Source of the DNA: Leptogorgia sarmentosa
Lineage: Eukaryota
DNA: 64,000 bases
Assembly (NCBI GenBank): GCA_964658305.1
Contig: OZ210885.1
Coordinates: forward strand, 4,216,001 to 4,280,000
Reading direction: 5' to 3'
Positions within the stretch are counted from its first letter, which is position 1. Every line of letters begins with the position of its first letter. Under the pieces are notes generated by a model. It was given only the letters and a program-made list of their open reading frames with translations. It did not search any database and was not told the origin of the DNA. Made by a program: the position numbers and the translations under genes. This document shows, one piece after another, positions 7,513 through 45,405 of the stretch.

Positions 7513-7889
7513 ACATTTTCAGAAGACATTTTCTTTAACGAAAATTCACATGTTTTGCTACTCGCTATCTATCGAGGAATAGATATCGAGTAGGGTAGCC
7601 AATCAAATTGCAGCATTTGCAATAGTATACGAGTATGATTCTACTAAATATATATATATGTTTTTACAAAAGATCTCCGTGATATATACATGTACCCTTG
7701 TCAGGATATATACAAACACACACATACCGATTGACACCTACACTTTAATCATGTTTATGTTGAAACCATACGATTCCTTCCACTCACCAGCTATCAACAT
7801 ACATATTGGATATATATATATATTGACTCCAGCCCAATATATATTATATTGTACTTCAGTGTTATAAAATTTACAAAACTACGGGAATA

Positions 7890-8350
7890 AACTCATGCGT
7901 TATATAGCCTAAAACTAATTAATAAAAATGAATATAAAGCACTAGAGCATGCAAATATAACTAAGTAAAAAGTAATTAAGAATAATCTATTCTGTTTTTG
8001 GATCTAAACTCACATTTCTTATTAAGTCCATGCGGTTTCAGAGTGCACAATTGCGTATACTCTAATATCCTTCTTTAGTAAGTAGTAAGCAAACGTTTAT
8101 CTGAGGTATTGAATATTGATAACATTATCATTACTTATTTGTTCTATACCTATAAAGCTAAAGTCTGAGAGGTTATGCTCTATCCTATTATAATCGCCAG
8201 CAACTTCACACGTATTCTAATTACTTTTTACTTAGTTATATTTGCATGCTTAGTGCTTTTTATTCATTTTTATTAATTAGTTTTAGGCTATATAACGCAT
8301 GAGTTACATACAACACTGAAGAAGCCCGAACGGGCGAAATGTCTGTTAAT
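7890..8350 (-). mobile_element. Penelope-like retroelement remnant (GIY-YIG C-terminus between inverted repeats)
   Basis: Minus strand reads EHNLSDFSFIGIEQI...QLCTLKPHGLNK (typical PLE endonuclease end). About 85-bp inverted repeats at 7890-7977 and 8219-8305; hammerhead-like motif at 8312-8347. Confidence 0.7.
8312..8347 (+). ncRNA. Candidate minimal hammerhead ribozyme (PLE-type variant)
   Basis: AACA-CUGAAGA-A-GCCCG-AA-CGGGC-GAAA-UG-UC-UGUU: 4-bp stem I, 5-bp stem II, GUC triplet, vestigial stem III. Confidence 0.55.
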
Positions 8351-8503
8351 AAACAACGATTTTTATTTGTCTGGAGTTCGCGTTTCTCTTTCATACTATT
8401 TATACTTCCAAGCGTCTTGTAGGATCCTGTGGATCCTCCAGACAAGTGGGCTCATTCGTTGGTACCAGGTATCATTCAAATTTTATATACATATATATAT
8501 CTA

Positions 8504-8549
8504 ACTACAGACGGAACCGTTTCGTCCTTTTGGGACTCATCAGTGTAGT
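8504..8549 (-). ncRNA. Type I hammerhead ribozyme
   Basis: Minus strand ACUACA-CUGAUGA-GUCC-CAAAA-GGAC-GAAA-CGG-UU-CCG-UC-UGUAGU: canonical core, 6-bp stem I, 4-bp stem II, short stem III, GUC cleavage triplet. Confidence 0.85.
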
Positions 8550-8775
8550 GCAGATGAGCTCATTATGAGTCGTGTGCGATGCCTCACAGATTGTGGGACA
8601 CCGAAACTATGCCAGAGTGCTCAAACTGCGCACGCGCAGTGAGCGTTGCACTTATATATATATATTCAAATTCACCTGATGAGTGTAACAGGGTTCTACC
8701 TGTTATACGAAAGTAAATGTAATATTTCAAGTTTCCTTTTTTCTGATTTGCTCTGCTGTTTGTATTGGGCACTGT

Positions 8776-9912
8776 GTCTACATATAAACCAATACCAGCC
8801 AAAAAATATAATACAAAAAATAATCCGAAGATTAACATCTTGAAACCCAAGATATGAGTTAAAACAAGACAAAAATGAGTTTGTGATATTTCGATTTTAT
8901 TATAAATCATCAGACTAACTAAAGTTACAATATATACACAAGGTCTTATATACAAGTTGGTAATCCATGACAACAATAAACGGAAGTCTCAATCAAGGAA
9001 ACGTGACAGGTTAGCAGTGTGTGAAGTGTGATGACACGTGGGTGTAAGACATGAAGCGTAAGATTATGAAAAAAGGTTGAGTTCTTTGCTAGCTTTGAGA
9101 CCAGAATTTAGACTAGGGTACGATTAGATTTGGGTACGCGTTCCATATCCTGGTAAAGAAACTTTAGTCAAAAAATGCTTAAACTGATAAAATAAAACGT
9201 TGTCTAACTGCTCCGATAAATTTTATTGTCATTTACGACACCAAAAAGTTTTCATATTTTCTTTCGAACAAGGACAAAATTCCCAATCTTGATAAATGTA
9301 ATATAGTTTATGAAATAACATGTCCGGGGTGTTTGGAATCCTATATTGGAAAAACTGAAAGATGTTTAAAGACGCGACTTTCCGAACATATGTACTAATC
9401 CTGCTAAAAGTGCTATAGGATAACACTTTTACAACTGTGAGAACGTTCAACATATAGTAGGTCTACTGTCTACACTTTGCGTTTGACAAACTTAACAATT
9501 TATCTCGAATTCTTCACACCACTAATTCCCGCACGGCGCACACCTAATTTTCTCTTGTTGCTTGAAGCACTCTATATTGAATATCGTCTCCCTAGTCTAA
9601 ATTCTGGTCTCAAAGCTAGCAAAGAACTCAACCTTTTTTCATAATCTTACACTTCATGTCTTACACCGACATATCATCACACTTCTCACACTGCTAACCT
9701 GTCGCGTTTCCTTGATTGAGACTTCCGTTTATTGTTGTCATGGATTACCAACTTGTATATAAGACCTTGTGTATATATTGTAACTTTAGTTAGTCTGATG
9801 ATTTGTAATAAAATCGAAATATCACAAACTCATTTTTGTCTTGTTTTAACTCATATCTTGGGTTTCAAGATGTTAATCTTCGGATTATGTTTTGTATTAT
9901 AGTGTCTACATA
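8776..9912 (+). mobile_element. 5'-truncated Penelope-like element with inverted pseudo-LTR
   Basis: Plus strand 9303-9389 reads IVYEITCPGCLESYIGKTERCLKTRLSEH (GIY-YIG) and ~9561-9630 LEALYIEYRLPSLNSGLKASKEL, with frameshifts. About 250-bp inverted repeats at 8820-9075 and 9635-9890. Confidence 0.85.
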
Positions 9913-11510
9913 TGAAACTTCCCTCCCCGAACTTCACATGCTTCCTACGCCCCTGGACACACACGACCCTTTTCTCACGACACACGACACCGGGGCAAAG
10001 GGCAAATGATAACATCATAACAGTTGACCAGGTGCGATTGTCTCGACCACACAGCACGTTTGGTTTTTCTGTTGAAACATTTGGCCTTGAAAAATTATCC
10101 GTTGGTTTGGATTCTGTAAAGCGTTTTGGCGAACAGTCTTTCATGGAAGTAAGGTAGGAATAAATTAAAACGAAGTATGGTTGTGTCAATTGACCTTTGA
10201 TCTAACGATGCCGTGCGCATTATTTGAATGAGCGCAAGAATTTGTTATCTAGCTCAGTCCTTGACCGTTCTGTTTATTACATATATAAACATGGTACGGG
10301 TGCACAAATTCATTCAAACCTGTTCGCTTAGGCCAGATAGACAAGCAGTAACTGAGTTTAATAATTATCCTTAATATGATAATGAATTGCGCAAGTTATC
10401 TGTGAAATCATACTCGTACAAGATATAATTGTATGAGTGAGTTTAATAATTATCCACATGTGGATAAAGTCAACACGTCCGATTGAATTTGCGAAAGCAG
10501 AAAAAGCCTATTTTATCTCAACCTTATCCAAGCAGGAGTTTTGAGTTTGATTGTATAATCATAATGGCATGTGGCATTTCTATTGAGACAAACTTGGGCT
10601 AGATTGCAGAATACCCGGCCGGTAGTCATATGTCACTGCGTAGCCATAATTTGAGTGGCTATACTGCAGTCATACGCGAATCACACGCGTGGCCGCGCTA
10701 TTTAGTCATCTATCACTGTGTAGTCACTCTTGCGCATTATCAAATTTCAAAATGCATGGATCTGAATAATTAAAGTTTACTGTAAACATGCAAAAATTCA
10801 CTAAAAATATTTGCATGTAGCTTCTGTACACTAGTAAATTAAAAGCGCGCCTACAATATGTAATATCCACATTCAAAAGATTTTTCGCGCACAATATATA
10901 TGGAATATTTAATAGGAAGCTTTACTTTGATAATATTTAGGAATTCGCTTGTTAGTAATTATCACCGTGATATTGTTACGGTCAGGGCTTACTGTTTGGG
11001 TTAGAGTTTACTGTTTGGGTTAGGGATTACTCTTTTGAAACGTCGAATTTTGGTCGCATCGAATGCAATTCAAACAATGGATAATGAGATGACTTACTTC
11101 ATTACCTATTGTTTGAATTGCATTCGATGCTGCCTCATGGTCCAATAGCATTTATCAGAAAATTGTGTTTCGCGACGATCCAAATGCTATAATATTCGTT
11201 AAAAAACGGAATTAACAAGTTTGTACAGTGGCGTCGCCAGACTTCATAAGTGTGGGGGAGGAAAAGGCCTTGGAAGATCAATAACTTGGGGGGGGGGGCA
11301 TATTCGGGCTTCCGCGGCCTCTGGTTATGGAGGAACACCTCTAGAGCAGTCAGCTGTTTTCCAGGAATTAAGAGTTGCTACAGTGTAGTTCCACATCACA
11401 AGTCACAACAGCAATTGATGTGGTAACGTGATTTCGGTAACATCAATTGATGCTCGTTTTTTCTTATCAGATCTTAATCAACCATAAATTCCACTGGTGA
11501 AATTTCTGAA

Positions 11511-14500
11511 ATGAAGGATTCCGCCAAAGTTACAACATCCAATCTTCAAGTCCCAGAAATTGTTCTACCCATGCTAGAAATTAAAGGTAAGCCTTTGCGG
11601 TGATTCGGTGAGATGAATTGACCAAAACCCTATTCTCGTAATTTCACAAAACCAATACTTAATGATTTCAGTCAGTGAGGGAACCATGTCATGAACATAC
11701 AATATCTTGTCTATAGCTAAGTTCTTTTCTTATCATGACAGTAATCTTAAGTTGTTGTTTCTTAATGTGCCTATGCCAACAAGGTAAACCACTGAAGTCT
11801 CTCTAAGTTATATCCGTAATGGCCTCTGTTATGTATTTTAAAGGTTCATGAGAAAGATCAATGTGCTAGATCTATCAAATTGTTGCTTACGCCCGTTTTC
11901 TACTTCATTATATCCCCGCTGGGGGCGAAGAGTTCTGAAAGAGAAATCATTTTTATACATTCAATAACCATAGAAGAATTTGTTCGGCCTCTGCAGTTGC
12001 TGAAAGTTTTCAACCTTTGTCTTACCTTTCACTGGCGGAGCTGAAAAAAAAACGAATTTTATCATATAGTAGACAGGACTGTGAGATCCTTCCCAGAAAA
12101 TACACAGTGAGATATTTTCCATATCTTCACTACTGAAGATATCGATCACGTGATCATTTCCCGCCAATAAATTTGTTTTCAAAATGGTAAAGTTTATCTA
12201 AGAGTAGCGAACCGTTTTTTTATCTTTGTTCAATGAAAAAAAACATGTTTTCGTCGCGAAAATGAAAATACAAGAAAAAACTAAAATGATGCCAAGGCAT
12301 TCTTTGAATTTGGATAATACGATGTGAGTAGTTGAAACGTTTAGCATTATCGATCAAAAATTAATAATATCGACTGGGTTTTACGACTATATAATAAAAA
12401 ATTCCCTCCGCTCATTCGTAAAATATTGTTTTCACCACTTGAAGATAAAATTCATATCTTCGCATCGCCGTCCCTGAAATGTAGAAGTTATCACCAATTT
12501 AGTTTTTTGTCTACCAGAGTTATTGATTCTGTTGTTTCTATAACTTTTAGATCGTATGCAACCAAAAGAAGTCACCGAAAGGACCAAAGTAATGGAGACT
12601 CCATCGAAAAACCCAACATTCAGACTTAAAGTCCCTGAAATTGTTTTGCCCATGCTGGAAATTAACAAAGGTTTGAATTGTTATTAAAATCCTTTACAAA
12701 ATGACGTGTTTCAAGACATTCTGAAGTACTTAGTTTTTGTCTAAAGGCAAGCTGAAGCGAAAAAAATCAGGTCTAAACAGTGGTCTTCAATATGTGTCCA
12801 GTGTTGCATGATTGCGGACAAACTCCAGACGTTCTACTCATTACCGAAACGATACAGACAGATTCCACGTCTCCAACGAAGGCAATTTGTTGAGAATCTG
12901 TTTATATCTTTCTGGTAGAACTTTTTCTACTTGTTGAGTAAACAGCTGCAGCAATTGTGACCTTAAGGATGCTTTCCACTGTTGCATTTTTGCATAGATT
13001 TTTCAAGTGTCTGCTTCTGAAAGATCCCCACACATGGAAAGAACCAGAAAATGATTCCGGTTTTCGAATAGTCAAAAATTACACCATTTTTAGCAGGGTC
13101 GATTTCAGAATATCATTTGTTCTTAAATGACAAATATTATAAGCTTTGTTTAAAAAATCACAGCTGTGGCAGAGATCTTATGTGATGAAGATTTACTTAA
13201 TTAAGCACTCCAGCTAGCGTTCGTGTTTCAAATTGTTCGTAAAATGATACAAACCTACTTTGATATATAGTAGTCCATGCAAACACTTTTAATTTCCACA
13301 TACATAAATTGGCAATTTGCTGTTTTTTTAATAGATCCTATCTGGCCGCAAAATCCAACCAGTAAAGGAAAAAAAACGGAAACCAGTACTTCTAAAAAAC
13401 CAGTACACCTCATTCCAGAAATTACTTTAGCGAAGCTGTCAATAACCAAAGGTGTGCAATTCTTATTTACAATATCAGTAAATATGACTATTATATCTAT
13501 TTAACATCACTTATGCTAATACAATTCGACATGATTTTGCGTGAAAGCTCGGGAAAAATAACGTGTGCATTAAAAGATCAAGTGATAAAATAAAAACAAA
13601 TCAGATCAATTTAATAAAAACCAAAAATAAAGGAGAAAGATAGTGAGCAAAAAGAAAAAAATTCGTAATAGTACTCCCAGTCAAATCTGAAGTGCGATGT
13701 TTCCATATTATATTTAGGTTTAAAAGTTGGCACAACTACATCACGAGCGCAGCTAGTGGCGAAGGTATTCCTGGATAAGTTGGAATATCCACTATCTTTA
13801 AAAAGGAAGTTCAAAAGGTGAGACTATGATCTGATACAAGTGAGATGTTACAGATAAGATCGGAATAATTTTTGGCCCTATATAAAATGTATCGTCAATG
13901 TGTGATTTTTTTACATAAGCCAGGGCCGGTGCTAGAACGTTAATTGGGGTTGGGGGATATTCAGATATTGCCGTTCTGCCGACTAATTTCTTCCGAAATT
14001 AATTGATAAACAACTGATTTCAAAAGTATCAGTCTCAAACTGCGTCTTGTTTTGAATTATATATTGATGATGTCAATTATATATTGAATTATATAATTAC
14101 ATCAAGATGTCCTGTATTTTCGGAATTTGTTTTTTACTTTATGAAAAAACGTCGCGCTTGCAATTATTACAAAGGGCGCCTGGATCCCAGGAACCATTAT
14201 ATCAGGTATATACTATATTTAATGGATATTTCTTCTTTAAAAGGTATCGCCCATGTGAAAAGTTCACGAAACAAGCGGTCAAAACATGGACTACATCACA
14301 AGCGCAGCTACTGGCGAAGGTATTCCTGGATAAGTTGGAATATCCATTATCTTTAAAAAGGAAGTTCAAAAGGTGAGACAATGATCTGATACAACTGAGA
14401 TGTTAGAGATAAGATCGGAACAATTTTTGGCCGACTGATTTCGTTTGGAATTAATTCATAAACAACTGATTTCAAAACAAATCAGTCGGCAGAACGCCAA

Positions 14501-17500
14501 TATATGAATATTTCCCCTCAAGGTGACGATCTTTTTACATAAGCCAGGGCCGGCGCTAGAATGTTAATTGGGGGGGGGGGGGTATTCATATTTTGGCGTT
14601 CTTCCGACTGATTTCTTTTGGAATTAAAAGAAATCAGTCGGCTGAACGCCAATATATGAATATTTCCATCTCCCTCCTCAATTAACGTTCTAGCGCCGGC
14701 CCTGGTATAAGCTCAACAGTCACTAAAATTCTCAATAATACTGTATGCAGAATGTAATGTGGCATGATTATTGAAGTTTCAGTCAAATTGAACACAAGTT
14801 CTAGAAATATTTTAAATAACAATACATGCAACTGGACCTAATCATTTGTTTTGAGAACGTCACTATACAACTCAACCTCTTCAAAAAGAAATTTTACCTA
14901 GTAGTTTGGCAACGTCATTAACTAGGTCAGCGGCGTAGGAAGATTGATAATAAGGGGGGCTCATATTCATATATTCGTGTGCTGCATCATTAATTTCTGT
15001 TGAAATCCATTGTTTTTATCGTCTGTGGACACGAATATATGAATATCAGCCTATGAATATTAGGTGTGACGAATTTTGGAACTTTTTGGGTGCCCACGAT
15101 CAATAAATTGCGGTTGAAGCGGGCGGCACATGTCGTTGCTCAAGGTTATTTATATATTTGCAGACGTCATCCAAACACAGAAACTGTAAAATTATTGTTT
15201 CACGTAAATCAATTCTGGGACGTAGGAACGTTTCAAAAATTGGGGGCCGAACCTCACGAGGCTCCACTATGGTTGGCGCCGAGCGAGAACATTTTGAACG
15301 TGTAGGGTTTGAACTTTGAAATGACAATTTCGGAGTCCAAACTCGACCTTTTTAGTTGGCTTCGTTGGGTATAGAAGTGAAAGATTGTCGACTAAGGCAC
15401 GGCTTTTTGGGAGGGCGGCCCCCTGACGCAGCACAATTGGGGGGGGGGGGTGCGGATAATAGAAATTTTCTTTTCTCCTAACATTTTTCGAAATAGATTC
15501 GACGATCTGGATGCACCCACGTCATCAACTAAAAGACGGAAGGTACGTATTGATGGTACCAATTTTACGTACAAACTTTGCAATGGTCTAAAAGTAAATC
15601 GCGAGCATTAATGCCCTGTTACACGATGTAACTTTTCTTTGATGCAATGAGTCTTCATTAGATTTTCTTAATGACTTTACAAATAAAAAAGTCTTCACTA
15701 ATTTACATGTTTTGAAAGCATGTCTTGAGGTGGAATAAAAGTTTTACAGCTAACCAAATGGTCGAGGATAGGTAAATGCTTCAGTTAGAATGATGCATAG
15801 TAAAATCAGATGTCATTCACCCGCATTTTAGGCAACAAATTACTGCCACAGATTAAGATCACGAAAACGTAATAAACGGTCAAAAAAAGGAAGGTATGAA
15901 TCTCTGCACATTTATTACGTCGCGTTCAAAAGCGTACTTTTAACGGCCGAGAGCGTGCTTTTAAGAGGCCAGAGGCAAAACTGGCGTTGATCGTATTCTG
16001 CTCGGCTAAATACTTTTAAAATTGAAGTACTTATAAACTAAAATTGGGTTTTTATTGATTCGGATAGAGCACAAAAAGTTAGTTAATGATTTCTAGATTA
16101 GTTTCCGAGATATAAAGATTCAGACATTCAAATTTGGCCATTTTATGAAAAAACCATGACCAGCCGACAATTTAAAAAAATAAAGTAAAAAACAAATTCC
16201 GAAAATACAGATTATCGGACATCTTCATTTGAAGATGACTTTGAAATAAAGTCGAAAATTTACAGTCTCAAACTGCGTCTTGTTTTGAATTATATATTGA
16301 ATTCTCAAGATGTCCTGTATTTTCGGAATTTGTTTTTTACTTTATGAAAAAAACGTAGAGCTTGCAATTATTACAAAGGGCGCCTGGATCCCAGGAACCC
16401 ATCATTTCATGTATAAATATATTTAATGGATATTTCTTCTTTGAAAGGTATCGCCCATATGAAAAGTTCGCGAAAGAAGCGGTCAAAAAAGATGTTCAAA
16501 CAAAGGTATGATTCGTTGCCATTCTTGTTGTCATCCGAATATCTGAAAATTACCTCAGACAAATCTCATTTTTGTTAGGCCACCACGACATCTTTAGTTG
16601 GGGAAATATTTCAGTCGTTCTTTCCAAACGAACTAAACAGTTACACGGACAACGAAGTGACAAAATCAATCAGACAACAACCTGTTACACAAAGGTACGT
16701 TATATTTTTAGAATATAAGCGCTATTCAACAATCTGATTGCCTAATAATTGTGCATTGTGACGCATTATATAATACATAATTAACTTCTAACCGTTTAAA
16801 TGGCTAATTATGGTCACGTGACGATGAACGAGCGATTTCTGATGCGATTTTCTCCTTTTGATGGATGTGCTGAGTGCAAACTTCCTCAGTTTTGGACCAT
16901 GAATACTTCTTTTTGGACCATGAATATTTCTTTTTGACCATGAGTATTTCTTATTGACAATGAGTATTTGTTTTTGACTATGGCTATCCCTTTTTGGACC
17001 ATGACTTATTCTTTTTGCACCATGAGTATTTCTTTTTGGACCAGGAGTATTTCTTTTTGGACCATGAGTATTTATTTTTCGACCATGAATATTCATTTTT
17101 GGACCTTGAATATTTTTTTTTTGACCATGAGTATTTCTTTTTTACCACGGGTATTTCTTATTGACCACGAGTATTTGTTTTTGACTATGGCTATCCCTTT
17201 TTGGACCATGAGTATTTCTTTTTGGACCATGAATAATTCTTTTTGGACCATGACTAATTCTTTTTGCACCATGAGTATTTCTTTTTGGACCAGGAGTATT
17301 TCTTTTTGGACCATGAGTATTTATTTTTCGACCATGAATATTCATTTTTGGACCTTGAATATTTCTTTTTGACCATGAGTATTTCTTTTTTACCACGGGT
17401 ATTTCTTATTGACCACGAGTATTCGTTTTTGAACATGAGTATTTCTTTTTGACCAAGAATAAATTCTTTGGACGAGCAAAAATATGAATTGTTTTGAACC

Positions 17501-20500
17501 TTAATCGTAGGTGCACTGGAATGAGTGTGGAAGAGGATCATGACCCAAATATGGAGCACGAGGTAATTTATCTGGGTGTGTAATTTATTGTCATACATCC
17601 AAATATTTCAAGTATCCGGAAGATAGCGTGAAATTAAACTTATCTGACCACAGAAATCACCCCCCCCCCCCTTGAAATGTAGATAAGAAATCATGCAGTG
17701 GTGTTGCTAACTACGAAATTAATCAGATAGATTATTAGATTGATGACCTACATCTCATAAAAGTATTAGGGCGTGATTCCATGAATGTTCTTTCTTTGCG
17801 AAATGCGAAAATTTTCATGTAAAATAATTGTATGCATGTGTGATAAAAGCAAATAAAATTTCTCGAGAAAAAAATTCGCTTCGCCAGGGAGTAGAAGTCA
17901 GTTCTAAAGTGAGTTTCGAAAGTGTGGAGAATTCAGTGGCATTATTCATGTGCGACTATCCGAATTTCCTGAATTTCTATCAGACAATTGCTCGCGGGAG
18001 ATTTCGCTGTCGTGGAATCAGGCCTCTGGCAATTAGTTAACAATATCTTTTTTCAGACAGTAGTAAAGTGGGTTGGTGAACCTGTAAAAGTTTCTGGGGC
18101 AAGAAATTATTATTCCAACGTCCTGGTTGATAACGAACAGGTATTTACGCTGATTGTCAAAATCACGTGATTTGCAGATTGCTGCATGTTGCACACGAAC
18201 TAAAACACATTTGAAGACACACAGTCACCCTTTCACCGATGTGATTTACTTGGCTAGAAATTTGATTTTGTTCCCGAACCTTTTCAAACTTGTGCAAAAG
18301 CAGTGACAACAATATACGGCTCACTGTGGCATTATAGCTAACAGTCTGCCAGACTTACACTGGATCTTAAATTTAAATCCATCTTTCAAAATATCTTTAG
18401 TTTTGGTCTTTAAACGTGACAAATATAATTATATTGTTGCTGTTATTGCCACGACTGCATGAAATCACATCATTCAAAGAGGGACCGACCATGTGTTTTT
18501 AAACTCCTAAAGAGCGCCTAACAGAGACTAACAGATGTTGACGACATAGCGCCCACAGTGCATTTCGTGCTTAGAATTTGAAGAAGGAGATTGACTTCTG
18601 AAAAGACGTTAATTTAAGTTGCATTATTAAACAAAAACGACAATATAATCAATACAATCAATATACTGTTAACGTATAGGTCGATATTGGTGATTATGTT
18701 CGAGTTTGCCCTACGGATCCCAAAGTGCCGCTGTATGTTTGCAAAGTAATTTCAATGTGGGAAAACAATGAAGGCGAAAAATTGTTTCATGGACGATGGT
18801 TCAGGTAAGGTTTGGATACCTTAATCCTTGGACTTTTTGTTTGTATAGATAATATAGTTAATACTGTGAAGGTAAACCTAAAAATTCCCTACCTTGCAGG
18901 TAACCTAGTATGCTATATAGTTAATCTGAGGTATGTTGACATGTTTTTTTTTATTTTCTAAATATAGCCATTGTTGGGACACTGTAATTGGCCATACTGG
19001 CGACCCCAAGGAACTTTTTCTAATTGATCTATGCGATGACAACCCATTAGGCTCCATTTTGGGAAAATGTGTGGTACGTGTACTAATATTACTATTTTAT
19101 AATTTTTTATTATATTCATTGTAGTTGATAAATGAGTTTCGATTGGTCAATTGCATATAGATAAATCAAGCAAAAACGTACCTGCAGATTACTCAGTTAT
19201 AAGAAATACGTTTTAAGCAAATTTTTGTTCAAAACAAACAAAATTACCTCGCCCCTTTTACGAGATAATTATCTTATCCAATTGTCGAGCTCACATATCA
19301 GAGTATAATGGTATGTACCCTCCGTGAAAAAATAAAAACAAATGTAGAATCTAGCTAGAAAATCAAGTGAATCAACAATAAATGAAATCTAAGCTCGTCA
19401 GAAGGAAAATGCACAAAATAAACTACAAATTCACTCAACAAATGTTTCACGATTAATTAACAGACAGAGGAATTGTACACGAGAAACCACGAGAAAACCG
19501 AAATTGCTCGGATTTTAAAGACGTTTTACCTCGAAGCGCGAAAAATGGTCTCGTATTAAGTGCACAAAATGCTAAAAAGCCAGAAAAACGCAAACTACCG
19601 AGAAATCGATTGGCTGCAAAACTCAAACTTGTTCGGCAAAACGAAAGACTGAATATCATTGAAACGATTATACCATTCTGCTTTTCGTATCAATTGTTTT
19701 ATTGAATTTAGGTTAAATACAAACCCCTTAGCGATAACTGGCTCTCGGATTGCACTGGAAAATGTGTCAACAAAGTCAATGACGGGGAATATTATTATCG
19801 AATGTGGTAAGTGAAATAAATCTAAAAATGTCTTTTCTAAGCATCGAGGTTTAATTGTTTTCGAAGCATTTAAACGATATGATTTCATGCATTAGGTTTG
19901 GCGCATGAAAAGTTCGATGTTTGACCTAGGCCTTAGCGGTACAAACGTTTAATGATGGAGGTATCTCATTCATGAAAGCCGGTTTGTCAAGACTTAAAAA
20001 ACATCATGCAATCCAGCAAGACGAATTCACTATTCACGCTTCATAGCTTTCACATCTTTGTACTTTGGAAACAGGCGATGTGTATACGTAGAAGAAATAA
20101 ATAATTACCGTAACCTAAAGCCTTGTACTGTTTCAGGTATGATGACGAATATGCTCGTTTTGAACAACAACTGGAGTATTGCGAGAAGGAGAAAGAAGAC
20201 GAGTGCATTAGTTGCATCAGATCACAAAGAAAAAAACAGGTATATGGTCTGCATACAGTATATGTTTGCAATCCTTAATGTTTCATCCAATACTTTTTCA
20301 AAATCAATTCGGAGGATAAGCTATCTTTATTAGATCAACAAACAGAAAATATGTCCTATGATCAACAACAGCAAATAATGTATGTAGCTATGTTTACCTT
20401 TGTTTTATTTAGTTCCACTCTGCCACCGTAGGGGAACTCCTAACACCTAATGATGTAGCCTCAACTGGGAATTTATTTAGGTAATTTATGATCAAAAATA

Positions 20501-23500
20501 AACCTATAGCTAGTAGCTACATAGATACCGAATCGTGTTATGGAATTTTAATCTGCATCATTTTTTTAGGAATGAAAATTTCTTCACCACATATGTGTAA
20601 TATAGCAGTACCACAACACCTGAAATTTTCAAACATATTTTGTCAATAATATATTCCGCCGATCTCCAAATGTTCCACTGACCCAATGAAAGGTCTTTGC
20701 TCATTTTGTTGAGCTCCGTTTGATCGTTCAAGAAGTGAGTCAAGCCCGTTTTCCACTCCACTATTTCGCAGTCGCCAGTGAAATAATTTGACAGAAAAAT
20801 CATTTTTTTACATTCATTCGCTAGTGAAAAAAAATTGTTCTACATCTCCAGTTGTTCAAAACTTCCAACTTTTGTCTGACCTTCCGCAAATAGCGTCGAA
20901 GAACAGCGAATTGAATTTTTCGGTGGCAAAAATTTTCGCCAGCGGCGACGAAGCTATTTTTCCCTCTCGTAAACGGTCGTTGCCTTCCAAAACGGTCGAT
21001 GCCTTCCCTGCTCGCATTTTAAATGTTACATAATGCATTTCCACTATAAATATTTTTGTTTTCGACATTTTCCAGCGAGCTCGAAATTAGCTCAGACGGA
21101 TAGGCACGCGGTACGTGCGTCTGTCGCAGTTTTAAAGTTCAAGCCCCGGTTCGACACTTTTTTTCGCGTTAGTGATTTCAACTTTTCAATATTTTCCCGA
21201 CTTTTATGGTTAGGGTTAGTATTTTAGGGTTTGGGTTGGGATTAAGCGTATTTCAAATTTTTAAATTTGTCATAAACTAGGCAAAAAGCGAGCAGGGAAG
21301 GCATCGACGGTTTTGGAGGGCAACGACCGTTTACGAAAGGGAAAATTGCGGCGGCGAAATGCGTGAGTGGAAAACGGGTTTGAGACGATTGCTGTTGAAA
21401 CGGGTTTGCTGAACACTAAGAGAACATGTGACATGCAAAGTACGCAGTATCAAACCATTAAAAAATACAGTAGCAAAAAATGTTTACGAGACCTTGACAA
21501 AAAACAAAAAAAAATCATTTGGTAACTATCATATTTTTAAGAACAATCAACATTTTATGCGTTTGATGAACAATGTCTTGAAATAACCTGATTATCAAAC
21601 ATTCCTAAAATAAGCCCAAGAAGGCTTGAAAAGAATTTTTTAGGATATAAAAAAAATTACCAGATCATTTTAGGATACTAGAAAATTTGATCAGGTCATT
21701 CTGAATGATCCTAATCATAAAAAAGTGATGTCGAAATTAGCTACATTGCCACCTTAACGCTACGGTTAATAGTAATAGCTCAATACGTTTTGATCACCAG
21801 GCATGTTATAACATATTCCGCAGATCATTTTATCTTTGTGGTGTTCAGTATGAAATTGGTGACACAGTCTACCTCACACCAGATGCCTTCGATTTCAGGT
21901 AAGCTGTAACTTAATTTCATTTGCTTGTAAAAGAGTCGCATTGTAAATTTTATTCATAATAAAAAAATTATTATAAAATGCGTGAATATTACAGCAAGCG
22001 GAATATACGGAAATTTTGAATCAGAACTAAAATGCAAATTCAACCAACTTCACACAATCGAAATCCATCTTTGGAATGTACAAGTATGTTACGCAATGTA
22101 CAAGTATGTTGCAGTTGGAACGATCAGGACGTGAACCCTCCGCACAGTGCAAATGTTACCCTCTTATCAGTCTTACCTTGCATTTATCTTTTCCAAGATT
22201 CCCACTGGCTGAACCGAAATCGGTTGCAAAAAACTTGGATCATAAGGTAAGTGGAAAGCAAAAATTGTATCTGGGTCGAAAGATAGGTTCCTGCATGTTA
22301 TTTAGAATTCAAGAGTGAAAAATAGAAAAGGAAAAACAGGGGACAATAAATTATTTCATTTGTCAAGGAAAACAGAACTGATATTTTATGCGATTACTTT
22401 GAACTCAAGTTACGTTTACATTGTATCGGATCTCTTGCTTACCGACGCAAAAACCAAGCCGGATTAGGCTTCTGTTTACACCGCAAACGATGAAATAACA
22501 TCAATCTTACAAACAAAACAACCATGCGACGCTCCGCAGTTCGAAGTGGCGCCGATGGCGTGTCGGATCAGCTTTTGTGTCGCTTTTCTTCTAGTGTAAA
22601 TACTAATCGAACCGATTTTGAGTACGAATTTGGAAACATGATTCGAAATGGCTCCGTGGCAAACTCAACAACAACTGTAGGGGCACCGTAAGATGTTTAC
22701 ACATCTGCCGAAGCGCTGCGCGAACGAAACAACAGGTGATCCGATACAATGTAAACGTAGCCTCAGATACTTGTTACATGATGTTTAATTTTTTTAAAGT
22801 CCTATTTCTTTTTCAAAAACAGGACGAGGACCTCTATCCCGAATACTACAGGAAAAAACAAGCGGGACAGAAAATGTCCAATCCTAGACCATTTAACATC
22901 GGTAATGTATACATCATGACCGACTGCGGTGTTAAGGAAGTTAAAAACATAAATATATAGCGCTCAATATACGGTAAAAGCATCAGTAGACAATTAAATT
23001 GCATATTGGCCAATGGATTCACTTGCCATGAAGGGCGTCAATCCTGGGGGGGGGGGGGGGTATGGGGGGGAGGCGTCCCGAAGAAAAATTGTTTTTTGGT
23101 AATCTTAAAACCCCAAGCCTGTATGCTATACATCGTGAATTGTGAAGTACAATCAACAATCTGAGATCAGAAGAAAACTATTCGGAGCCTTCGAATAGTT
23201 ATGCGAATGAAATCCTAATTGGAAAGGCAATAAACCGACCTCAGCCACGTACACACGTTCAAATTTGCTTTTGTCTGAAACCTAGTTTTACCATTCTATT
23301 TTCACCATTTCACCAGGGAGGGAAAAAAAGAATTATCAATTAAAATCATAATATATTGATTCTCTAAAGGACAAATCTTATCAATTAAGAAGAATAAAAC
23401 AAATACGGAGAAAGAAAACGTGATGATGGAATGCACCATTAGAAAATTTTACAGGTATTGCTTTAAACAAATTGAGTCCACGACGGACAAAATGCCACGT

Positions 23501-35500: not shown

Positions 35501-36472
35501 AAATAAGTTGTAAATAAATTACCTGTAATAGTTGAATACATGTATATGCGAAAGGGGAAAGAAATTGATGAACATGGCTGGGATGTACAATCATTTTTGA
35601 AAGTATAGTTGGAAAACCAATGGTTTTAGGGTTAGGGAATATAGGGTTAGGGTATAGCGGAATATATGAAATACGTCTATATCAAGCCATATTGTCGTAT
35701 TCAAGTGTATTTGGTTGGCTTTCCCCTCGGCTACGTCATGCACACTTTTGCAGTATCTACTGGATAAAAATTATTGATGTAAAGCAAGTTTGTCCACCAG
35801 TATTTGCTACACAACGGATCGAAAAACTGGGTGTTCCAGTATTATTGGGACTCTGTCAGAAATCCCTACAGGTGAATTGAAAACATGATCACGAACATAT
35901 GTGAATTTTGCTCATAACTACAAACAATAATAGCATCCCTCCCCTCCCCCTCCTCATTCAATGTTGTTTTGCCAATCCATACACTATTGTACGCGAAAAT
36001 CAAATACTAACTACAGCTAGGGATAATCCCTATTGTGGGGGGATTAGCCTTCAAGTAAATGATGCGATATGGGGTATCTGCCCCACCACATTTGAAAACG
36101 ATTGTACCAACAGGGGTAGCAGACAGACTCCCAATGTTCAGCTCAGGGTATCAGGTATCGCTTGGCGCAAACATTGATGTTCTGGCGAACTTCCTCACTT
36201 TCAGCGACCTCAAATTTTGGCACTGAAAAAGCTCCCTCTCCTCTCTCAGAAATGCAGCTTGTATGCCTTATCCTATTACATGCAAAATTCTTCATAGTCA
36301 TTAAAGCCACCACAAGTGTATTCACAAGTTTCGTGTATGATTTTTAAAAAAATACATTGGTTAACTCTTTGGTAATAATGCAACAGAAGTTATTTTTATA
36401 TAGGTTGGAAATGCAGTTCCACCTCCAGTGGGGAAATGTCTCGGGTTGGCAATCAAACAAGCATTTCAATGA
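11511..36472 (+). CDS. DNMT1: Divergent DNMT1-family DNA (cytosine-5) methyltransferase, 31 predicted coding exons, 1076 aa (BAH1, BAH2, C5-MTase)
   Basis: Hand-spliced GT-AG exons, all phase-compatible, 3231 nt with no internal stop: 11511-11586, 12551-12670, 13335-13451, 13718-13817, 14244-14372, 16448-16505, 16579-16694, 17511-17562, 18057-18140, 18680-18804, 18968-19073, 19712-19806, 20137-20239, 20413-20480, 21824-21898, 22198-22246, 22823-22901, 23370-23454, 23887-23960, 24076-24194, 24381-24449, 25051-25111, 26876-27027, 28241-28369, 29105-29251, 32669-32827, 32991-33083, 33394-33560, 33641-33878, 35351-35467, 36404-36472. DNMT1 signatures: [70 protein letters not shown] (I), GGPPCQG (IV), ENV (VI), QSRHR (VIII), [34 protein letters not shown] (IX), QVGNAVPPP (X). 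Exons from 16448 on are homology-supported; the first five and the start codon are less certain. Confidence 0.93.
14545..14705. mobile_element. hAT-type MITE in a DNMT1-like intron (partial sister copy at 13921-14025)
   Basis: TIRs CAGGGCCGGCGCTAGAA / TTCTAGCGCCGGCCCTG; flanks ACATAAGC and GTATAAGC resemble a decayed 8-bp TSD. Confidence 0.7.
16890..17458. repeat. Minisatellite with a 20-21-bp unit (TTTTTGGACCATGAGTATTTC-like) and a higher-order repeat
   Basis: Over 25 tandem degenerate units; variant blocks (GACTATGGCTATCCC, GCACCATGAG, GACCAGGAG) recur in the same order. Confidence 0.95.
20957..21346. mobile_element. MITE with ~57-bp TIRs
   Basis: TTTTCCCTCTCGTAAACGGTCGTTGCCTTCCAAAACGGTCGATGCCTTCCCTGCTCGC matches the reverse complement of 21288-21346; internal TAGGGTT motifs; second copy at 2811. 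Confidence 0.85.
22409..22761. mobile_element. MITE (PIF/Harbinger-like termini)
   Basis: GTTACGTTTACATTGTATCGGATC ... GATCCGATACAATGTAAACGTAGC inverted termini. Confidence 0.7.
24853..25026. mobile_element. Small MITE with GCATAA micro-repeats
   Basis: AAAGCTGGTTCTCACTGAACATAAGC ... GCTTATGTTCACTGAGAACCAGCCTT inverted termini. Confidence 0.7.
27246..27318 (-). tRNA. tRNA-Thr(AGT)-derived pseudogene or repeat head
   Basis: GACCTCG TA GCTC AGTTGGTA GAGC A TTGGA CT-AGT-AA ACCAA AGGTC GCGGG TTCGATT CCCAC GGAGGCC A. A and B boxes are intact, but there are 2 acceptor-stem, 1 anticodon-stem and 1 T-stem mismatches. It lies inside an inverted-repeat element (27188-27421). Confidence 0.75.
28585..29012. 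mobile_element. MITE with TAG...CTA termini
   Basis: TAGAGACCTTACGATTGGCGT ... ACGCCAATCTTAAGGTCTCTA. Confidence 0.7.
29287..30061. mobile_element. 775-bp almost fully palindromic Tc1/mariner-type MITE
   Basis: TA|CAGGGTGTAT...ATACACCCTG|TA; arms of about 350 bp are near-perfect reverse complements. Confidence 0.92.
30066..31691 (-). mobile_element. Full-length Tc1-superfamily transposon (DD37E/TRT type), 1626 bp, intronic
   Basis: 28-bp TIRs CAGTACGTTCG(T/C)TTTGATTATGCAAATC with 1 mismatch, TA on both flanks, single transposase frame. Confidence 0.95.
30449..31462 (-). pseudogene. DD37E transposase (337 codons) with one premature stop
   Basis: MGKNRDL...[15 protein letters not shown]...FQHDNAPAH...WPPNSPD*NPIENLW. 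The TAA at 30653-30655 replaces the Leu of SPDLNPIE; 37 residues lie between the second D and the E. Confidence 0.92.
34068..34487. mobile_element. Palindromic MITE-like element
   Basis: ACTACCATTTGCAAGCAAACGCGAACGGCGAACATTTTA ... TAAAATGTTCGCAGTTCGCGGTTGCTTGCAAATGGTAGT. Confidence 0.75.
34927..35173. mobile_element. Tc1/mariner-type MITE
   Basis: TA|CAGGGGGGTGGACAAAAAATAGTGGCCCCCAG ... CTGGGGGCCACTTTTTTTTGTCCACCCCCTG|TA. Confidence 0.85.
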
Positions 36473-38019
36473 GCCCAAGTCTCTCCAAGAAGACCTGGCA
36501 TCTACTTATCATGGCACTGTGGGACATATGTGGACTAAATTGGCAGCCTGGCATACTAACATTGAACGGGGACACTACTTGCACTGAATCTTAAGCACAT
36601 GATATTAAAATGTGGTAGTGATACTGTTAGTCAGGTGTCGCATGAATTTGTGATGTGTAATTTTTTCATTTGATCTGACAGGGCTTTCCACATTAATCAT
36701 GGATTTGTTTTTCAAAAATTATGTTATTATAGAAAAATTATTTAACAATTATTGAATGGGGTTGAGCACGATATTAAACAATTATTGAATGAGGCCGAGT
36801 AGGATATGAGGAATTATTCAGGCCGAGGTTAGTGTTATCTGCCGAAGCCTGAGGCAGATAACACAAACCGAGGCCTGAATAATTCCCATATCGTACGAGG
36901 ACCGAATTTAATAATTGTTTTATTATTTATTTGTATATAGCGCTTGCAAAAACACGCAATTACAAGGTACTGGAAATAGAACAATAATATAGTGTTCGCA
37001 AGACTGAATAAGCCAATCAGACTACAAGAGAAAATGTTCTTATAGCTGTTGTACATTTCAAGGTCGCAGTCAGAGCAATTCAACATAGCTAAACAAAAAT
37101 TAAATCAAACAAATTTATTTCAACTCAATATAAACGTTTGGAAGAACCTTTCCTTTGAGGAAGCCATTTGTATTTTCCGCAATTTTCCCGCTTTTGGCAT
37201 ATGCAGAATAAATTAGTCGACGTCATAATGTCGTATAATTTCAATATACGACATAATTACGTCATAATGTCGTATATGAGGATTTATTGCACTGCTCTTA
37301 ACCAATCAAAACTCTTGAATTATTTGAAATAAATAATAAGAATTATCAAGCCCGAAGTTTCCGGTGTCAACCGAAGCTGAGTTTGATATCCGTAAACTGA
37401 AAACTTGATAATTCTTCATATCGTGCGAAAACAGAATTCAATAATTGTTTTATTATTTATTTTATTAATACTCAGAATATTTTAGTACATTCAGCACTAA
37501 ATTCTTCAAAATACTATCAACTTATTCTTTTGCTCTTGAAAAATGTTCTTACGTTTTCTTTCCAAAATACTCTGTCAATCCATGTCGATGTCTTTAGTTG
37601 TTGCCTTTTCCAGGTTCTTTTACGTTTTTTTGTCCAAAAATGTGCGACGGCACCATGTTGTTTCTGTTTAACATTCAACATAACAATGGCATCAGAGAGA
37701 TAATACGACTCTCGTTGTCAAGGTGATATGGCGCAAAGGTGCCAAATTGTAATAATATTCGTGCTACAAGTTTTATCTCAATCTCTAATTGCTTTATTTA
37801 TTTTTGTACGCCCCCGACTCTATGTCTATACATAGACATGTCTATACATAGACATGACTAACTAATGTCAATATGTTACCTCTTCCCTCTTAAAGCTAGC
37901 AGGATGTTATATAACGTAATATGAACGATTCGAATAAACGTGTCCGTGTTTATCATGGTTGATTACATTAGAGTTAGTTCAATGTATGTGAAATGTTTCA
38001 GTTTCTCTTATTTCATGAC

Positions 38020-38320
38020 GTAGTCGTTAGGCAATACTTTAGGTCTGTTTCATCTTCTGGACATTGGTGGATTGGTTGAGATCTGGTGCTTGTGGGACGG
38101 TTGGTTGTTCTTCATCAACATTCTCGGTTTGTTCAGCTATGGTTGGTGGTGGAATGTTTGTCTTTAGTAGATCGCGACGGTTTCATCTGTATTGCTGCTC
38201 ATCTAGTGTAGTGATAGTATATATGATCTTGAAACAAGGACTACTCCTGATACAATACCTGGTACCCAGATGCTGTTCTGACGTTGGTGGAAACTTTCTC
38301 CAATGTCAAGTGGTTGATGA
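38020..38320 (-). mobile_element. Ty3/Gypsy integrase C-terminal remnant
   Basis: Minus strand WVPGIVSGV...RSYI...QQYR*NRRDLLKT with a frameshift and stop; purine tract (minus strand) at ~37879-37892. Confidence 0.6.
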
Positions 38321-38324
38321 CAGC

Positions 38325-38965
38325 ATTATAATATAGTTCTCTTTGTCGTTTTTTGAGATATGGGCTGATGTGCTTGAGTAGACCAAGTCGCTTTGACAAC
38401 TGCTTGCATAAGTGATCGATGTGGGCCTCGTAAGTTAAACTTTTGTCAAGAGTTACACCCAGCAGCTTTTGGCAGGAAACTTGGTCTATTTGAGTGTTAC
38501 CCAGTTTGACAGCTAAAGCTAAATTTTCGTTGTCATTTTCTAATATTTTCTTCTCGAGACGCTTGCCAGTTACCAATAATGACTTCGTTTTGTCGGTGTT
38601 TATAATCATCCTATTTCGAGTCCACCATTCACTAATTTTATCAAGATCATTATTGATGTCTTGAACCACAGTTGGAATATCAGTCCAATGCGCACTCGCT
38701 GACAGTGTTGTGTCATCTGCAAAAATGTCAATTGATGTACGAGTTAAGTGTAATGGTAGATCATTCACAAACAACAGAAACAGTACAGGCCCCAGAACCG
38801 ATCCCTGGGGTACGCCTTGCTTGATGGGTAAACAATCGGACCGTTGTCTTTCAATGGTAACAAACTGAGATCTGTTAGTCACATACGACGTAAACCAAGA
38901 TAGTGCTGAATCACTAACTCTGTAAAGCTTTAGCTTGGTTAATAAAAGTTGATGATCCACAACAT
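38325..38965 (-). mobile_element. Non-LTR retrotransposon RT fragment (CR1/L2-like)
   Basis: DHQLLLTKL...GVPQGSVLGPVLFLLFVNDL...FADDT...KLLGVTLD. Confidence 0.9.
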
Positions 38966-38969
38966 CGAA

Positions 38970-39563
38970 AGCAGTAAGAGACAGTCGTCTGTCTCGAGAT
39001 CAACAACGGAAGCGGAGTATATTGCTCTAAGCAATGCATGTCAGGAAGGAGTTTGGTTAAGAAAGTTGATGTCCGACATTAAATTAAAAGAAGTGGAACC
39101 AACAACAATCTATGAGGACAATCAAGGAGCCATTCAACTATCAAGAAACCCAAAGTTTCATAATCGGACCAAACACATTGACATTGCGTATCATTTTGTT
39201 AGAGAACAAGTTAGTCGTAATGTAATTTCTGTTAAGTACTGTCCAACAGAGAAGATGGTAACTGATGTCATGACAAAACCATTACCAAGAGTATCATTTG
39301 AAAAATTTAGCGACTTGTTAGGAGTAAAGGAAATTAACTAACGGATACATTGGTCATAGGCTTTAGTTCAAGTTTGTGTTTTTAGTTGATCATTAAGTGG
39401 GAGTGTTGGATTCAGTATACTTCATGTTAGTATTTAGTAATAATCAACTATATACCTAAGTCACATGATATAGCAAGCACATGTTTTGTTGTAAGTAGAA
39501 AGCTGTTCATATTTCGACAAATAAAGATGGGTTAACTACTTTCGTTCGAAACACATTTTAACA
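38970..39563 (+). mobile_element. Ty1/Copia 3' fragment: RNase H, PPT and putative 160-bp LTR (39404-39563)
   Basis: SKRQSSVSRSTTEAEYIAL...YEDNQGAI...RTKHIDIAYHFVRE; AAGTGGGAG followed by TGTTGG...TTAACA with an internal AATAAA. Confidence 0.88.
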
Positions 39564-41629
39564 GAAAATGGTCCAATAAACGCTGGGTAAAAATCGTTCT
39601 TCAGCGGAACAAGTGCCTTACCCCTCCCCCCTTAATGTTTGATGTTTATTAGCCTTTGTATAGTGTTTTAGATGAAGTATTTGGGTAGTTTAGGTAGTTT
39701 GTTTGTCGGCAGCAATCTTTTTTACTTTTTATTCGGTGAAATTGTTATAGAGATTTGCTTTTGTTTTGTGTCATATTACTGAACAGTCTTGACTAAAATG
39801 ACTAAGGCTCATTCGGGTAGATTTGGAAAACGACGATTTTGTGGCAATCGCCACACTACAAGCCGGCAGAAAAGCGACGAAGGTCTTCAGGAGTACGCCA
39901 ACATGTGTGGACCCATCTTCTAGTGGTGCTGTCAACAGCAACATCACTTCTACTCCCGCAAGTTCGCCAGTACCCTCTGCTTCAGCAAGAAAAAGTCGTT
40001 ACACCAGAGCCTGTGGAGATTCAGGAAACTGAAGGAGAACCAAAGGGCTATCGACTGATCGATTTGTCAATTGTAAACGATTAGGGAATGTAAACGATTC
40101 ACTCTGGAATTGTTTGAAAACATTTCTAAACATAAAGGCTGTGCTTCTACCCTGGAGCTTCATTGCCAAGCATGTGTATGGAAAGAGGAATTCTACACTT
40201 CTGCCAAGATCAGTTACTTTTTTGAAGTAAACAGACGGTTGGTGTATGATATGAGGTCAGTTGGATGTGGTGGTACTGCTGCTGAAAGGTTCTGTGGTAT
40301 GATGAACATGCCACCAATACCCAGAGCATCACCATATGCTGTCCACAATAAAGCATTGATGAAAGTTGCCAAGGAGGTTTGCCAAGAAACCATGAGTGAG
40401 GCTGCCAAGGAAATTCATGTCGAAGCGAATATGACGTAGTCCATCCGGTGTCGGAGTCACTCATAAAAAGCAGTGGGGCTGCCATCGCAAAAAAAGCGCG
40501 GGAAATAGCCCCTGCATTATGCCTCTAACCGGGAGCCCCCGGCAAACAACTTCGACTTATTTTATAGCATGAGGTTCGTGGGCCGACAACATGCGAGATA
40601 AGCTAAAAAATTCTACAAGTACTGACTACTGGATATGTTGTTCCTAACCTCATAGACCTGACCTTGGTGGGTGCTAGAACTCCAACGTTGTTCGCTACCG
40701 GGCTGGGAACCATACATTTCTCCCTCGTATAATCAGAATTATAGGGGCACGACGCTAAGCGGCGCTGGTATAATTCAAATTATACTTCACACTCTCCGGT
40801 CGAAAGGCGAAGCAGAGGACGAAGTCACTGATTGCAGAATTTCCTGTGATGATACCTGGCAACGGCGAGGATTCTGTTCCTCGAACGGGGGTGTGACTGC
40901 CATTTCCATGGATACAGGAAAAGTCGTGGATGTGGAGGTGATGAGCAGATTTTGCAAAAAGTGCCAAAAGCATGAAGACGATCAAGAAACTCCAGAAAAC
41001 ATTGCCTGGAAGGCTGATCACAAGGCTAAGTGCAAGATTAATTTCCAGGGTTCCACACCAGCCATGGAGCCAGAAGGTGCAGTGAGGATTTTCAAACGTT
41101 CAGTGGAAACGAATAAGCTCCGCTACACAGAGTATTTTGGTGATGGTGACAGCAAGAGCCATACTGCTGTGGAAGAGATTTATAATACTGACAAAGATGC
41201 TGTCCCAGTACGAAAGAGTGTGTTGGCCATGTGCAGAAGAGGGTGGGGACAGCACTTAGGAAGTTCCGTAAGGAGAATAAAGGGATGGGTGGAAGAGGGA
41301 AACTGACAGATACAGTGATTGACAAGCTCCAAAATTACTATGGGATAGCTGTGAGGAGCAACCCTGGTGATCTTGGAGCCATGAAGAAGGCCATTTTGGC
41401 CAGTCTATTTCACTGTGTCTCTTCAGAAAAGAACAACTTGTTGATTTCATAACTTTAATAAACCCTTTTAATACAGTGAAATAAATTGTTCAACCTGTTA
41501 ACAATACAACAAAACACGAGGCATAAAAATAGATACGTAGAATGTTCGTACAAGAATGCATTGCGCAATATCAATTCAACACTCCTTCTCATTCGCAGTT
41601 CGAATGTTCATTTAGCTAAGTTTTACTAC

Positions 41630-44600: not shown

Positions 44601-45405
44601 TCCAAGTTTCTTTGTTAATTTCAGAACCACTTGCTGCCAAACTCTGTACAACAAGTCCTAGACTTTCTGAATGAGTGCCTGGCTGACCTTTTCCAGCTTG
44701 ATTTCCTTTTGGCAAATGTGATTTTGCTTTCTCGGCATTTTTGTCCTTTAAATCTTTTCAAAAACGCCTTATGTGGCCAAGTTTTCCACAGTGATGACAT
44801 CTAACTGATTTTATATCAGTTTTCTCCGTTTTTGCTGCTACCATTACTTTACCACTAGGTTTGGATGGACTTTCTTGTTCACCCAATTTCTTTTCTTCGT
44901 AGAGTAATCTTTCAGTCACAACTTCCATCTGTGGAACTTCATTATTTGTTTCTAAAGCAGTGACAAGCATATCATAGCTTTCAGGAAGACTTGCAAGTAG
45001 AGTTACCACTTTATCTTCCTCTTGCATTGGTGCACCAATAACAGCTAAATCGTTAAATATTTCAGTCATAGCTTTAATATGACTTGACATAGAATTTCCA
45101 TCTTTCAGCCGTAGATTAATCAATCGCCGTCGTAAAGATCGCCACACTGTCACAGGGTCTTCAGGATCTCCGAGCAAGTATAACAGTGAAGTATCAACCG
45201 ACAGCACAATAATCGCCAGTGCTTTATCCTTACGGCTAATAAACTTCGCATACTTTTCAGCTTCTGTTGAAGCAGGAGCAGTTTCAGTCCCAGAAACAAT
45301 GCTCCACAGCCCGTCTTTCACGAGAGCCATACGACATTGGACTTTCCAAGTCCCATAGTTTGACCCTTTTAACGGAACAACCGTAACAGTTCTCGCTTCC
45401 GCCAT
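41630..45405 (-). pseudogene. Copia gag-pol polyprotein, frameshifted
   Basis: Gag with knuckle CHHCGKLGH, protease WIVDSGAT, integrase RTDNGGEF/QNGVAER, RT YKARLVAQGF and HVDD, RNase H DADWAGD; broken across ORFs 44758-45405, 44473-44715, 42528-44654, 42211-42423 and 41708-42115. Confidence 0.95.

Follow-up and report, generated by a model that had tools for sequence, protein, structure and literature searches.

A derived DNMT1-family gene in an octocoral

A 64,000-nucleotide (nt) stretch of the genome of the octocoral Leptogorgia sarmentosa (GenBank assembly GCA_964658305.1, contig OZ210885.1, positions 4,216,001 to 4,280,000 of the forward strand; the whole stretch is called the window here, and positions are counted from its first letter) contains an expressed, fast-evolving gene of the DNMT1 family. 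Animals rely on DNMT1 with UHRF1 for maintenance methylation and on DNMT3 for de novo methylation. We predict, with a probability of about one in two, that the gene in the window encodes an active cytosine methylase that acts independently of UHRF1 and shows little preference for hemimethylated DNA. The gene lies on the plus strand, where an open frame runs from an ATG at 11511 to a TGA at 36470-36472. Its product has tandem BAH domains followed by a cytosine-5 methyltransferase (C5-MTase) domain with a large target recognition domain (TRD) of the DNMT1 type, and it groups with animal DNMT1s, nearest to that of an octocoral. Four features of canonical maintenance enzymes are missing, namely, RFTS, CXXC, the (GK)n linker, and the hydrophobic pocket for 5-methylcytosine (5mC). 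Judged by its sequence, the gene is thus a DNMT1 by descent but is not a canonical maintenance DNMT1 by its features.

Catalytic domain and 5mC-reading pocket

Residues of the window protein were compared with those of 122 canonical DNMT1 sequences and are given in human numbering. The C5-MTase motifs I, II, IV (PC), VI (ENV), VIII (RxR), and X (GNA) are intact, apart from a Tyr in place of Phe in motif I (F1145). The equivalents of G1147, G1149, E1168, D1190, C1226, E1266, R1310, R1312, and N1578, which are catalytic or bind S-adenosylmethionine (SAM), are all retained, as are the Cys and His residues of the TRD, which we take to be zinc ligands. The motifs that the original prediction had named were located on the plus strand (PCQ at 28310, ENV at 29168, QSRHR at 32711, and GNAV at 36407), and its assignment of BAH and C5-MTase domains was borne out by Pfam BAH and DNA_methylase matches, each within single exons. 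That prediction overlooked an 18-amino-acid (aa) deletion in the TRD, the altered DNA-reading loops, and the duplications among the N-terminal exons.

Altered residues occupy 42 of the 192 near-invariant columns of the MTase domain, compared with at most 7 in any canonical row, a biased control, since it was these rows that served to define the columns. They are enriched in the three DNA-reading loops (14 of 34 columns, versus 28 of 158 elsewhere; Fisher p = 0.005), which comprise the catalytic loop together with loops I and II of the TRD; loop limits follow PMC6316889, with mouse-to-human offsets set in this analysis. In the 5mC pocket and loop II, the changes are C1499S, L1513K, N1529Y, E1531K, M1533D, and K1535Y, while L1500 and W1510 are retained; K1535 is the lysine that occupies the DNA cavity. 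The 5mC pocket (mouse C1501, L1502, W1512, L1515, and M1535) accordingly keeps two of its five residues, and the Ser, Lys, and Asp at the other three positions are found there in none of the 122 canonical sequences.

The preference of DNMT1 for hemimethylated DNA has been ascribed to this hydrophobic five-residue pocket, and the CXXC domain was without effect on the specificity of the full-length enzyme (PMC5062992). For this reason the change in the pocket, and not the loss of domains, is our main argument for lost maintenance specificity. The original prediction had read the gene as a possible de novo methylase: its view of a derived DNMT1 with catalytic residues in place stands, whereas its argument from the loss of RFTS and CXXC does not carry the claim (PMC5062992) and is better replaced by the altered pocket.

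Gene structure and transcript evidence

The rebuilt coding model has 33 exons, 3,339 nt, and 1,112 aa with a single, terminal stop, and all 32 introns are GT-AG. An open multi-exon frame had been correctly recognized in the original prediction, and its counts (31 exons, 1,076 aa) are replaced by these. For exon 18, an acceptor at 22171 was discarded in favor of 22198, which yields a 30-nt overlap between contigs (see below) and drops a 9-aa insertion. The features of the gene are as follows.

11365-36704, plus: transcribed span with 33 coding exons (run X4 contig pieces from 11361-11584 to 36402-36704; the transcript begins upstream of this span, at a point that was not located)
11365-11586, plus: exon 1 (start at about 11365), comprising 5' untranslated sequence that carries an in-frame stop and, from the ATG at 11511, coding sequence (X4 contig)
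11511-16505, plus: exons 1 to 8, basic N terminus (aa 1 to 236) in place of the DMAP1-binding domain, PCNA box, and RFTS (X4 splice joints)
11511-11586, 12551-12670, 13335-13451, 13718-13817, plus: coding parts of exons 1 to 4, basic N terminus
14244-14372, 15497-15542, 15832-15893, 16448-16505, plus: exons 5 to 8, basic N terminus
16579-16694, plus: exon 9, a helix kept from canonical DNMT1, where its place is between RFTS and CXXC (profile E 9e-6; X4 piece 16577-16696)
16695-17510, plus: intron 9, expected site of a CXXC exon; 21-bp tandem array, no CXXC match in Pfam and profile searches
17511-17562, 18057-18140, 18680-18804, 18968-19073, 19712-19806, 20137-20239, plus: exons 10 to 15, shortened linker and BAH1
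20413-20480, 21824-21898, 22198-22246, 22823-22901, plus: exons 16 to 19, BAH2 region
23370-23454, 23887-23960, 24076-24194, 24381-24449, plus: exons 20 to 23, BAH2 region, with no (GK)n linker after BAH2
25051-25111, 26876-27027, plus: exons 24 and 25, SAM-binding motifs I to III (YAGCGG; equivalents of E1168 and D1190 retained)
28241-28369, plus: exon 26, catalytic Cys codon at 28313-28315 and altered catalytic loop (human G1231F, M1232L, N1236P, Y1240R)
29105-29251, 32669-32827, 32991-33083, plus: exons 27 to 29, ENV and RxR motifs retained; exon 29 has the 18-aa deletion of the TRD at its end
33394-33560, 33641-33878, plus: exons 30 and 31, TRD, in which three Cys and one His are retained and the 5mC pocket and loop II are altered
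35351-35467, 36404-36472, plus: exons 32 and 33, motifs IX and X (GNAVPP) and the stop codon

Intron 27 also holds an open reading frame (ORF) for a Tc1/mariner-type transposase (30653-31600, minus strand), which is multicopy in the DNA runs and is covered by X4 contigs.

The locus is present in four public runs (X1 to X4), none of which is registered as RNA and three of which (X1 to X3) come from one sample. Contigs from X1 to X3 cross introns, and these runs are therefore DNA; their depth in the unique parts of the locus (about 90 to 130 in X1 and X2 and 165 to 190 in X3) does not indicate additional near-identical copies of the gene. Run X4 was taken to be RNA-like from its spliced contigs and from bins without intron cover. 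Eight GT-AG joints in X4 connect exons 1 to 9, and a 2,031-nt contig aligns piecewise to exons 30, 31, and 33, with a gap between the last two of 117 nt, exactly the length of exon 32. The joints of the middle exons are absent among the X4 pieces listed and were deduced from contig overlap: under the 33-exon model with the acceptor at 22198, a 1,074-nt contig anchored in exon 9 shares exactly 30 nt with the 2,031-nt contig, whose anchor is exon 30. Logan contigs are presumably built at k = 31, in which case adjoining contigs would be expected to share 30 nt.

The X4 piece on exon 9 extends two bases (GT) beyond the donor, and the sole AG|GT from exon 9 to exon 10 is that of exon 10 itself. Given this and the 30-nt overlap, a CXXC exon cannot fit, and the overlap under the 33-exon model further excludes additional CXXC, GK, or TRD sequence. 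An in-frame stop precedes the ATG at 11511 both in the window and in the X4 allele, so that RFTS or other upstream domains cannot join the frame. About 63 additional nt at the 5' end of the X4 contig, upstream of 11361, found no placement within positions 7520-16880 of the window and may represent a remote first exon or a leader joined by trans-splicing. The X4 contigs support a spliced, expressed gene with no RFTS or CXXC exons in its transcript model, the latter in line with the original prediction.

Lost modules and a new N terminus

Profiles of the individual modules were built from 76 to 121 canonical DNMT1s and searched in the six frames of the window. The DMAP1-binding domain, PCNA box, RFTS, CXXC, and GK profiles gave no match (best E values 0.46 to 3.4) in a search that recovered its positive controls, BAH1 at E 6e-15 and the helix preceding CXXC at E 9e-6. 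A PCNA-interacting (PIP) box was not found either. These profile searches of the window, together with the transcript model, agree with the original prediction that RFTS, CXXC, and (GK)n are absent. The DMAP1-binding domain, which it had also listed as missing, is indeed not seen, but this is no special loss, because the canonical DNMT1 of Dendronephthya likewise has no Pfam match for it. The loss of CXXC is internal, with the flanking sequence retained on both sides. One candidate for a CXXC remnant, a stretch of intron 9 with Cys residues (about 16824-16922), was dismissed, having no Pfam or profile match. The same intron carries a 21-bp tandem array of 27.5 copies (16890-17455); a causal link to the missing exon is not indicated.

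The first 236 residues are basic, with a net charge of +35, and derive from exon duplication (exons 1 and 2 are 85% alike, exons 4 and 5 are 96% alike, and exons 5 and 8 are 93% alike). They contain five cores of the form hydrophobic-x-V/I-x-L, and a shuffle test of these gave p values of 0.04 to 0.06, inflated by the exon duplication. In the Neurospora methylase DIM-2, HP1 binding is mediated by an I-x-V-x-L core near the N terminus (PMC11315935), and HP1 binding by the octocoral N terminus may be followed as a weak lead. In BAH1, comparison with the human pocket for H4K20me3, the residues of which are described in PMC8093215, showed that Y775, W796, and D802 are retained and that E819 is replaced by L, E821 by D, and D768 by T. 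The conserved Cys and His residues encoded by exons 10 to 15 are also kept. Position 819 also varies in the canonical DNMT1s of cnidarians.

Relatives and selection

In BLAST searches, the best match of the window protein was the canonical DNMT1 of Dendronephthya gigantea (XP_028404799.1; P0182 in our numbering of proteins). In a tree of the BAH and MTase regions, the two are sisters (SH-like approximate likelihood ratio test [SH-aLRT] 99), with branches of 1.56 for the window protein and 0.29 for Dendronephthya; this tree was a quick search on 25 rows, all DNMT1, picked from the matches listed plus Clytia, with no DNMT3 or CMT outgroup. The best match of exon 28 was a 165-aa protein of Paramuricea clavata (P0002; 77%, and 66% over 170 aligned model columns), which has a TRD deletion similar to that of the window protein. 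Derived TRD residues are held in common with the fragments P0003, P0153, P0004, and P0122, and the changed pocket positions in the related fragments hold S, K/R, and D/F. The window protein, P0002, P0003, P0004, and P0122 form one clade (SH-aLRT 99; P0153 was left out). From these comparisons it is likely that the gene arose by duplication of DNMT1 within the octocorals.

A full-length ortholog was not found in two exon searches, which gave one match each among 23 and 19 candidates. The best 120 of 1,245 matches in an alignment search were all canonical-type DNMT1s, as were all 4 loci recovered from 91 stretches in a metagenome scan. In the protein atlas, P0002 gave generic DNA_methylase clusters only, and the N-terminal exon gave no usable match. 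A different 169-aa DNMT1-like C-terminal ORF (P0001 and P0293 to P0295) reads through the intron positions of the window gene and has its own altered TRD loop II; it is possibly another derived DNMT1 lineage.

The original prediction had argued for selection from the open frame, and this argument was strengthened by simulation: when 829 codons were evolved neutrally to 42% amino acid change, a mean of 22 stops arose and 0 of 2,000 replicates remained free of stops, so that the frame is open far beyond chance. Among the seven exon variants listed, those beyond residue 236 were all synonymous (three of three), compared with one of four in the N terminus.

CpG content and neighboring sequence

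The observed/expected ratio (o/e) of CpG is 1.0 over the span of the DNMT1-like gene and 0.75 in its coding sequence. This lack of depletion is a weak hint against a housekeeping gene with a methylated body. At 48001-60000 of the window, the o/e falls to 0.39 to 0.51, compared with about 1.0 across the DNMT1-like gene, which suggests germ line methylation of the element located there or of the body of a host gene. This CpG-poor zone contains a hAT-type ORF (48686-49681) and further ORFs at 50133-50771, 51074-51850, and 52209-54143, the last with a weak NHL match.

Other features of the window are as follows.

1745-2728, plus: single-exon ORF for a rhodopsin-family G protein-coupled receptor (Pfam 7tm_1, E 3.5e-19), upstream of the DNMT1-like gene
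38241-38999, minus: reverse transcriptase fragment
40662-41306, plus: Mutator-like transposase ORF
41700-45414, minus: gag/pol ORFs of a Copia-type long terminal repeat retrotransposon
58800-61009, minus: pieces of a PIF1-like helicase ORF, probably a Helitron-type element

Possible functions

We hypothesize that the loss of both autoinhibitory modules would leave the active site open by default and that Ser, Lys, and Asp in the formerly hydrophobic methyl pocket would abolish the bias toward sites whose partner strand is methylated, so that unmethylated DNA could be methylated. In the weakest step of this scheme, targeting may have shifted to the new basic N terminus and to BAH1, whose retained aromatic pocket residues would favor heterochromatin. 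A bolder version, which we regard as doubtful, is that this octocoral duplicate serves as a second, DNMT3-independent de novo methylase, free of UHRF1 and of autoinhibition, docked on heterochromatin through an HP1-type array and BAH1, and perhaps with relaxed or non-CpG specificity.

Several observations weigh against a relaxed, UHRF1-independent methylase. Expression was seen in a single run from a single study. Both trees were quick searches with long branches, and in the fragment tree two long branches intrude, so that the octocoral grouping is neither rejected nor established (approximately unbiased test, p = 0.255). Drift in the pocket is common in divergent DNMT1s, since 39 of the 203 proteins fetched depart from the canonical WCLPH word, among them named proteins of mites and orthopteroids. 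None of the five N-terminal cores matches the full HP1 consensus, and three have one mismatch (Drosophila consensus, PMC12526061). RFTS mutants in mouse cells lose both methylation and chromatin targeting (PMC8093215). Finally, G1231F, M1232L, K1535Y, the changes in the catalytic helix, and the 18-aa TRD deletion could impair base flipping instead of relaxing specificity.

A weak or inactive enzyme kept for a noncatalytic role, such as binding DNA or serving as a scaffold on chromatin, most probably in germ line or stem cells, would also suit the clustering of changes in the loops responsible for flipping and holding the target base; moreover, one annelid genome that has lost 5mC still encodes a DNMT1 whose motif set is intact (PMC11292947). 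We consider this reading unlikely, given that all residues needed for the chemistry have been retained over 1.56 substitutions per site. Noncatalytic paralogs usually lose catalytic residues, as exemplified by DNMT3L. An active paralog that was uncoupled from UHRF1 and kept its preference for hemimethylated CpG, providing back-up or postreplicative maintenance, would be consistent with the retained equivalents of L1500, W1510, Q1536, and R1234 and with the finding that fragments of mouse DNMT1 comprising the BAH and catalytic domains bind and methylate substrate DNA (PMC5062992). Given that two of the five positions in the hydrophobic pocket now carry charged residues and that K1535 is replaced by Tyr, such a backup enzyme seems quite improbable.

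The chance is small that the gene is not a paralog at all but the sole DNMT1 of its lineage, diverged as maintenance methylation decayed. No canonical copy from Paramuricea was seen among the best 120 of the 1,245 matches, and the legend in PMC7826176 gives, by implication only, a single-copy symbol for Dendronephthya DNMT1. Against this, Dendronephthya retains a full protein with RFD, CXXC, BAH, and MTase domains, knockdown of DNMT1 and UHRF1 in a sea anemone leads to global loss of methylation (PMC13345969), and the CpG depletion at 48 to 60 kb of the window (o/e, 0.39 to 0.51) suggests that host methylation is working. A decaying duplicate or young pseudogene might be expected from the long branch and from the degenerate appearance of the relatives P0003 and P0153, yet the open frame, the 32 canonical introns, the splicing in X4, and the absence of any open frame in 2,000 neutral simulations make this very improbable indeed.

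Comparison with known systems

The nearest known system is canonical animal DNMT1 itself (Dendronephthya XP_028404799.1; human PDB entries 4wxx and 6x9i; mouse 3pt6 and 4da4), which has the same BAH1-BAH2-MTase order, Cys/His set of the large TRD, and catalytic motifs. Over aligned columns, the MTase domain of the window protein is 61% identical to that of Dendronephthya canonical DNMT1 and 57% identical to that of human. It differs from canonical DNMT1 in having lost RFTS, CXXC, the GK linker, and 18 aa of the TRD and in having gained a repeated basic N terminus. We found no description of this octocoral gene in searches of the open-license literature aimed at it. Its novelty is nevertheless limited, because other invertebrates are already known to have DNMT1 duplicates that lost some of their domains. 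In the annelid Capitella teleta, a pair of DNMT1s with divergent domain sets retains the catalytic motifs, and sub- or neofunctionalization has been proposed (PMC11292947). One Capitella copy lacks CXXC and the other RFD, whereas the window protein lacks both, and the available part of that report makes no mention of an altered 5mC pocket such as that seen here.

The best functional precedent is found in Chlamydomonas, where the DNMT1-related paralogs DMT1a and DMT1b are without conserved N-terminal motifs and have nonselective de novo activity (PMC9861306). These are green-algal chloroplast enzymes of independent origin, and the likeness considered here is one of described features. Neurospora DIM-2, a member of the DNMT1 superfamily, methylates CG and non-CG sites and is switched on by heterochromatin; its N-terminal HP1 core resembles the five cores of the window protein, but it keeps RFTS and has a different TRD (PMC11315935). 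If the bolder version above held true, animals would have in the octocoral enzyme a counterpart of fungal DIM-2, the plant chromomethylases, and algal DMT1. Such a DNMT1 could explain differences between lineages in the methylation of cnidarian repeats. A natural animal DNMT1 without both inhibitory modules and with a rebuilt 5mC pocket would also provide a test of what makes DNMT1 a copier.

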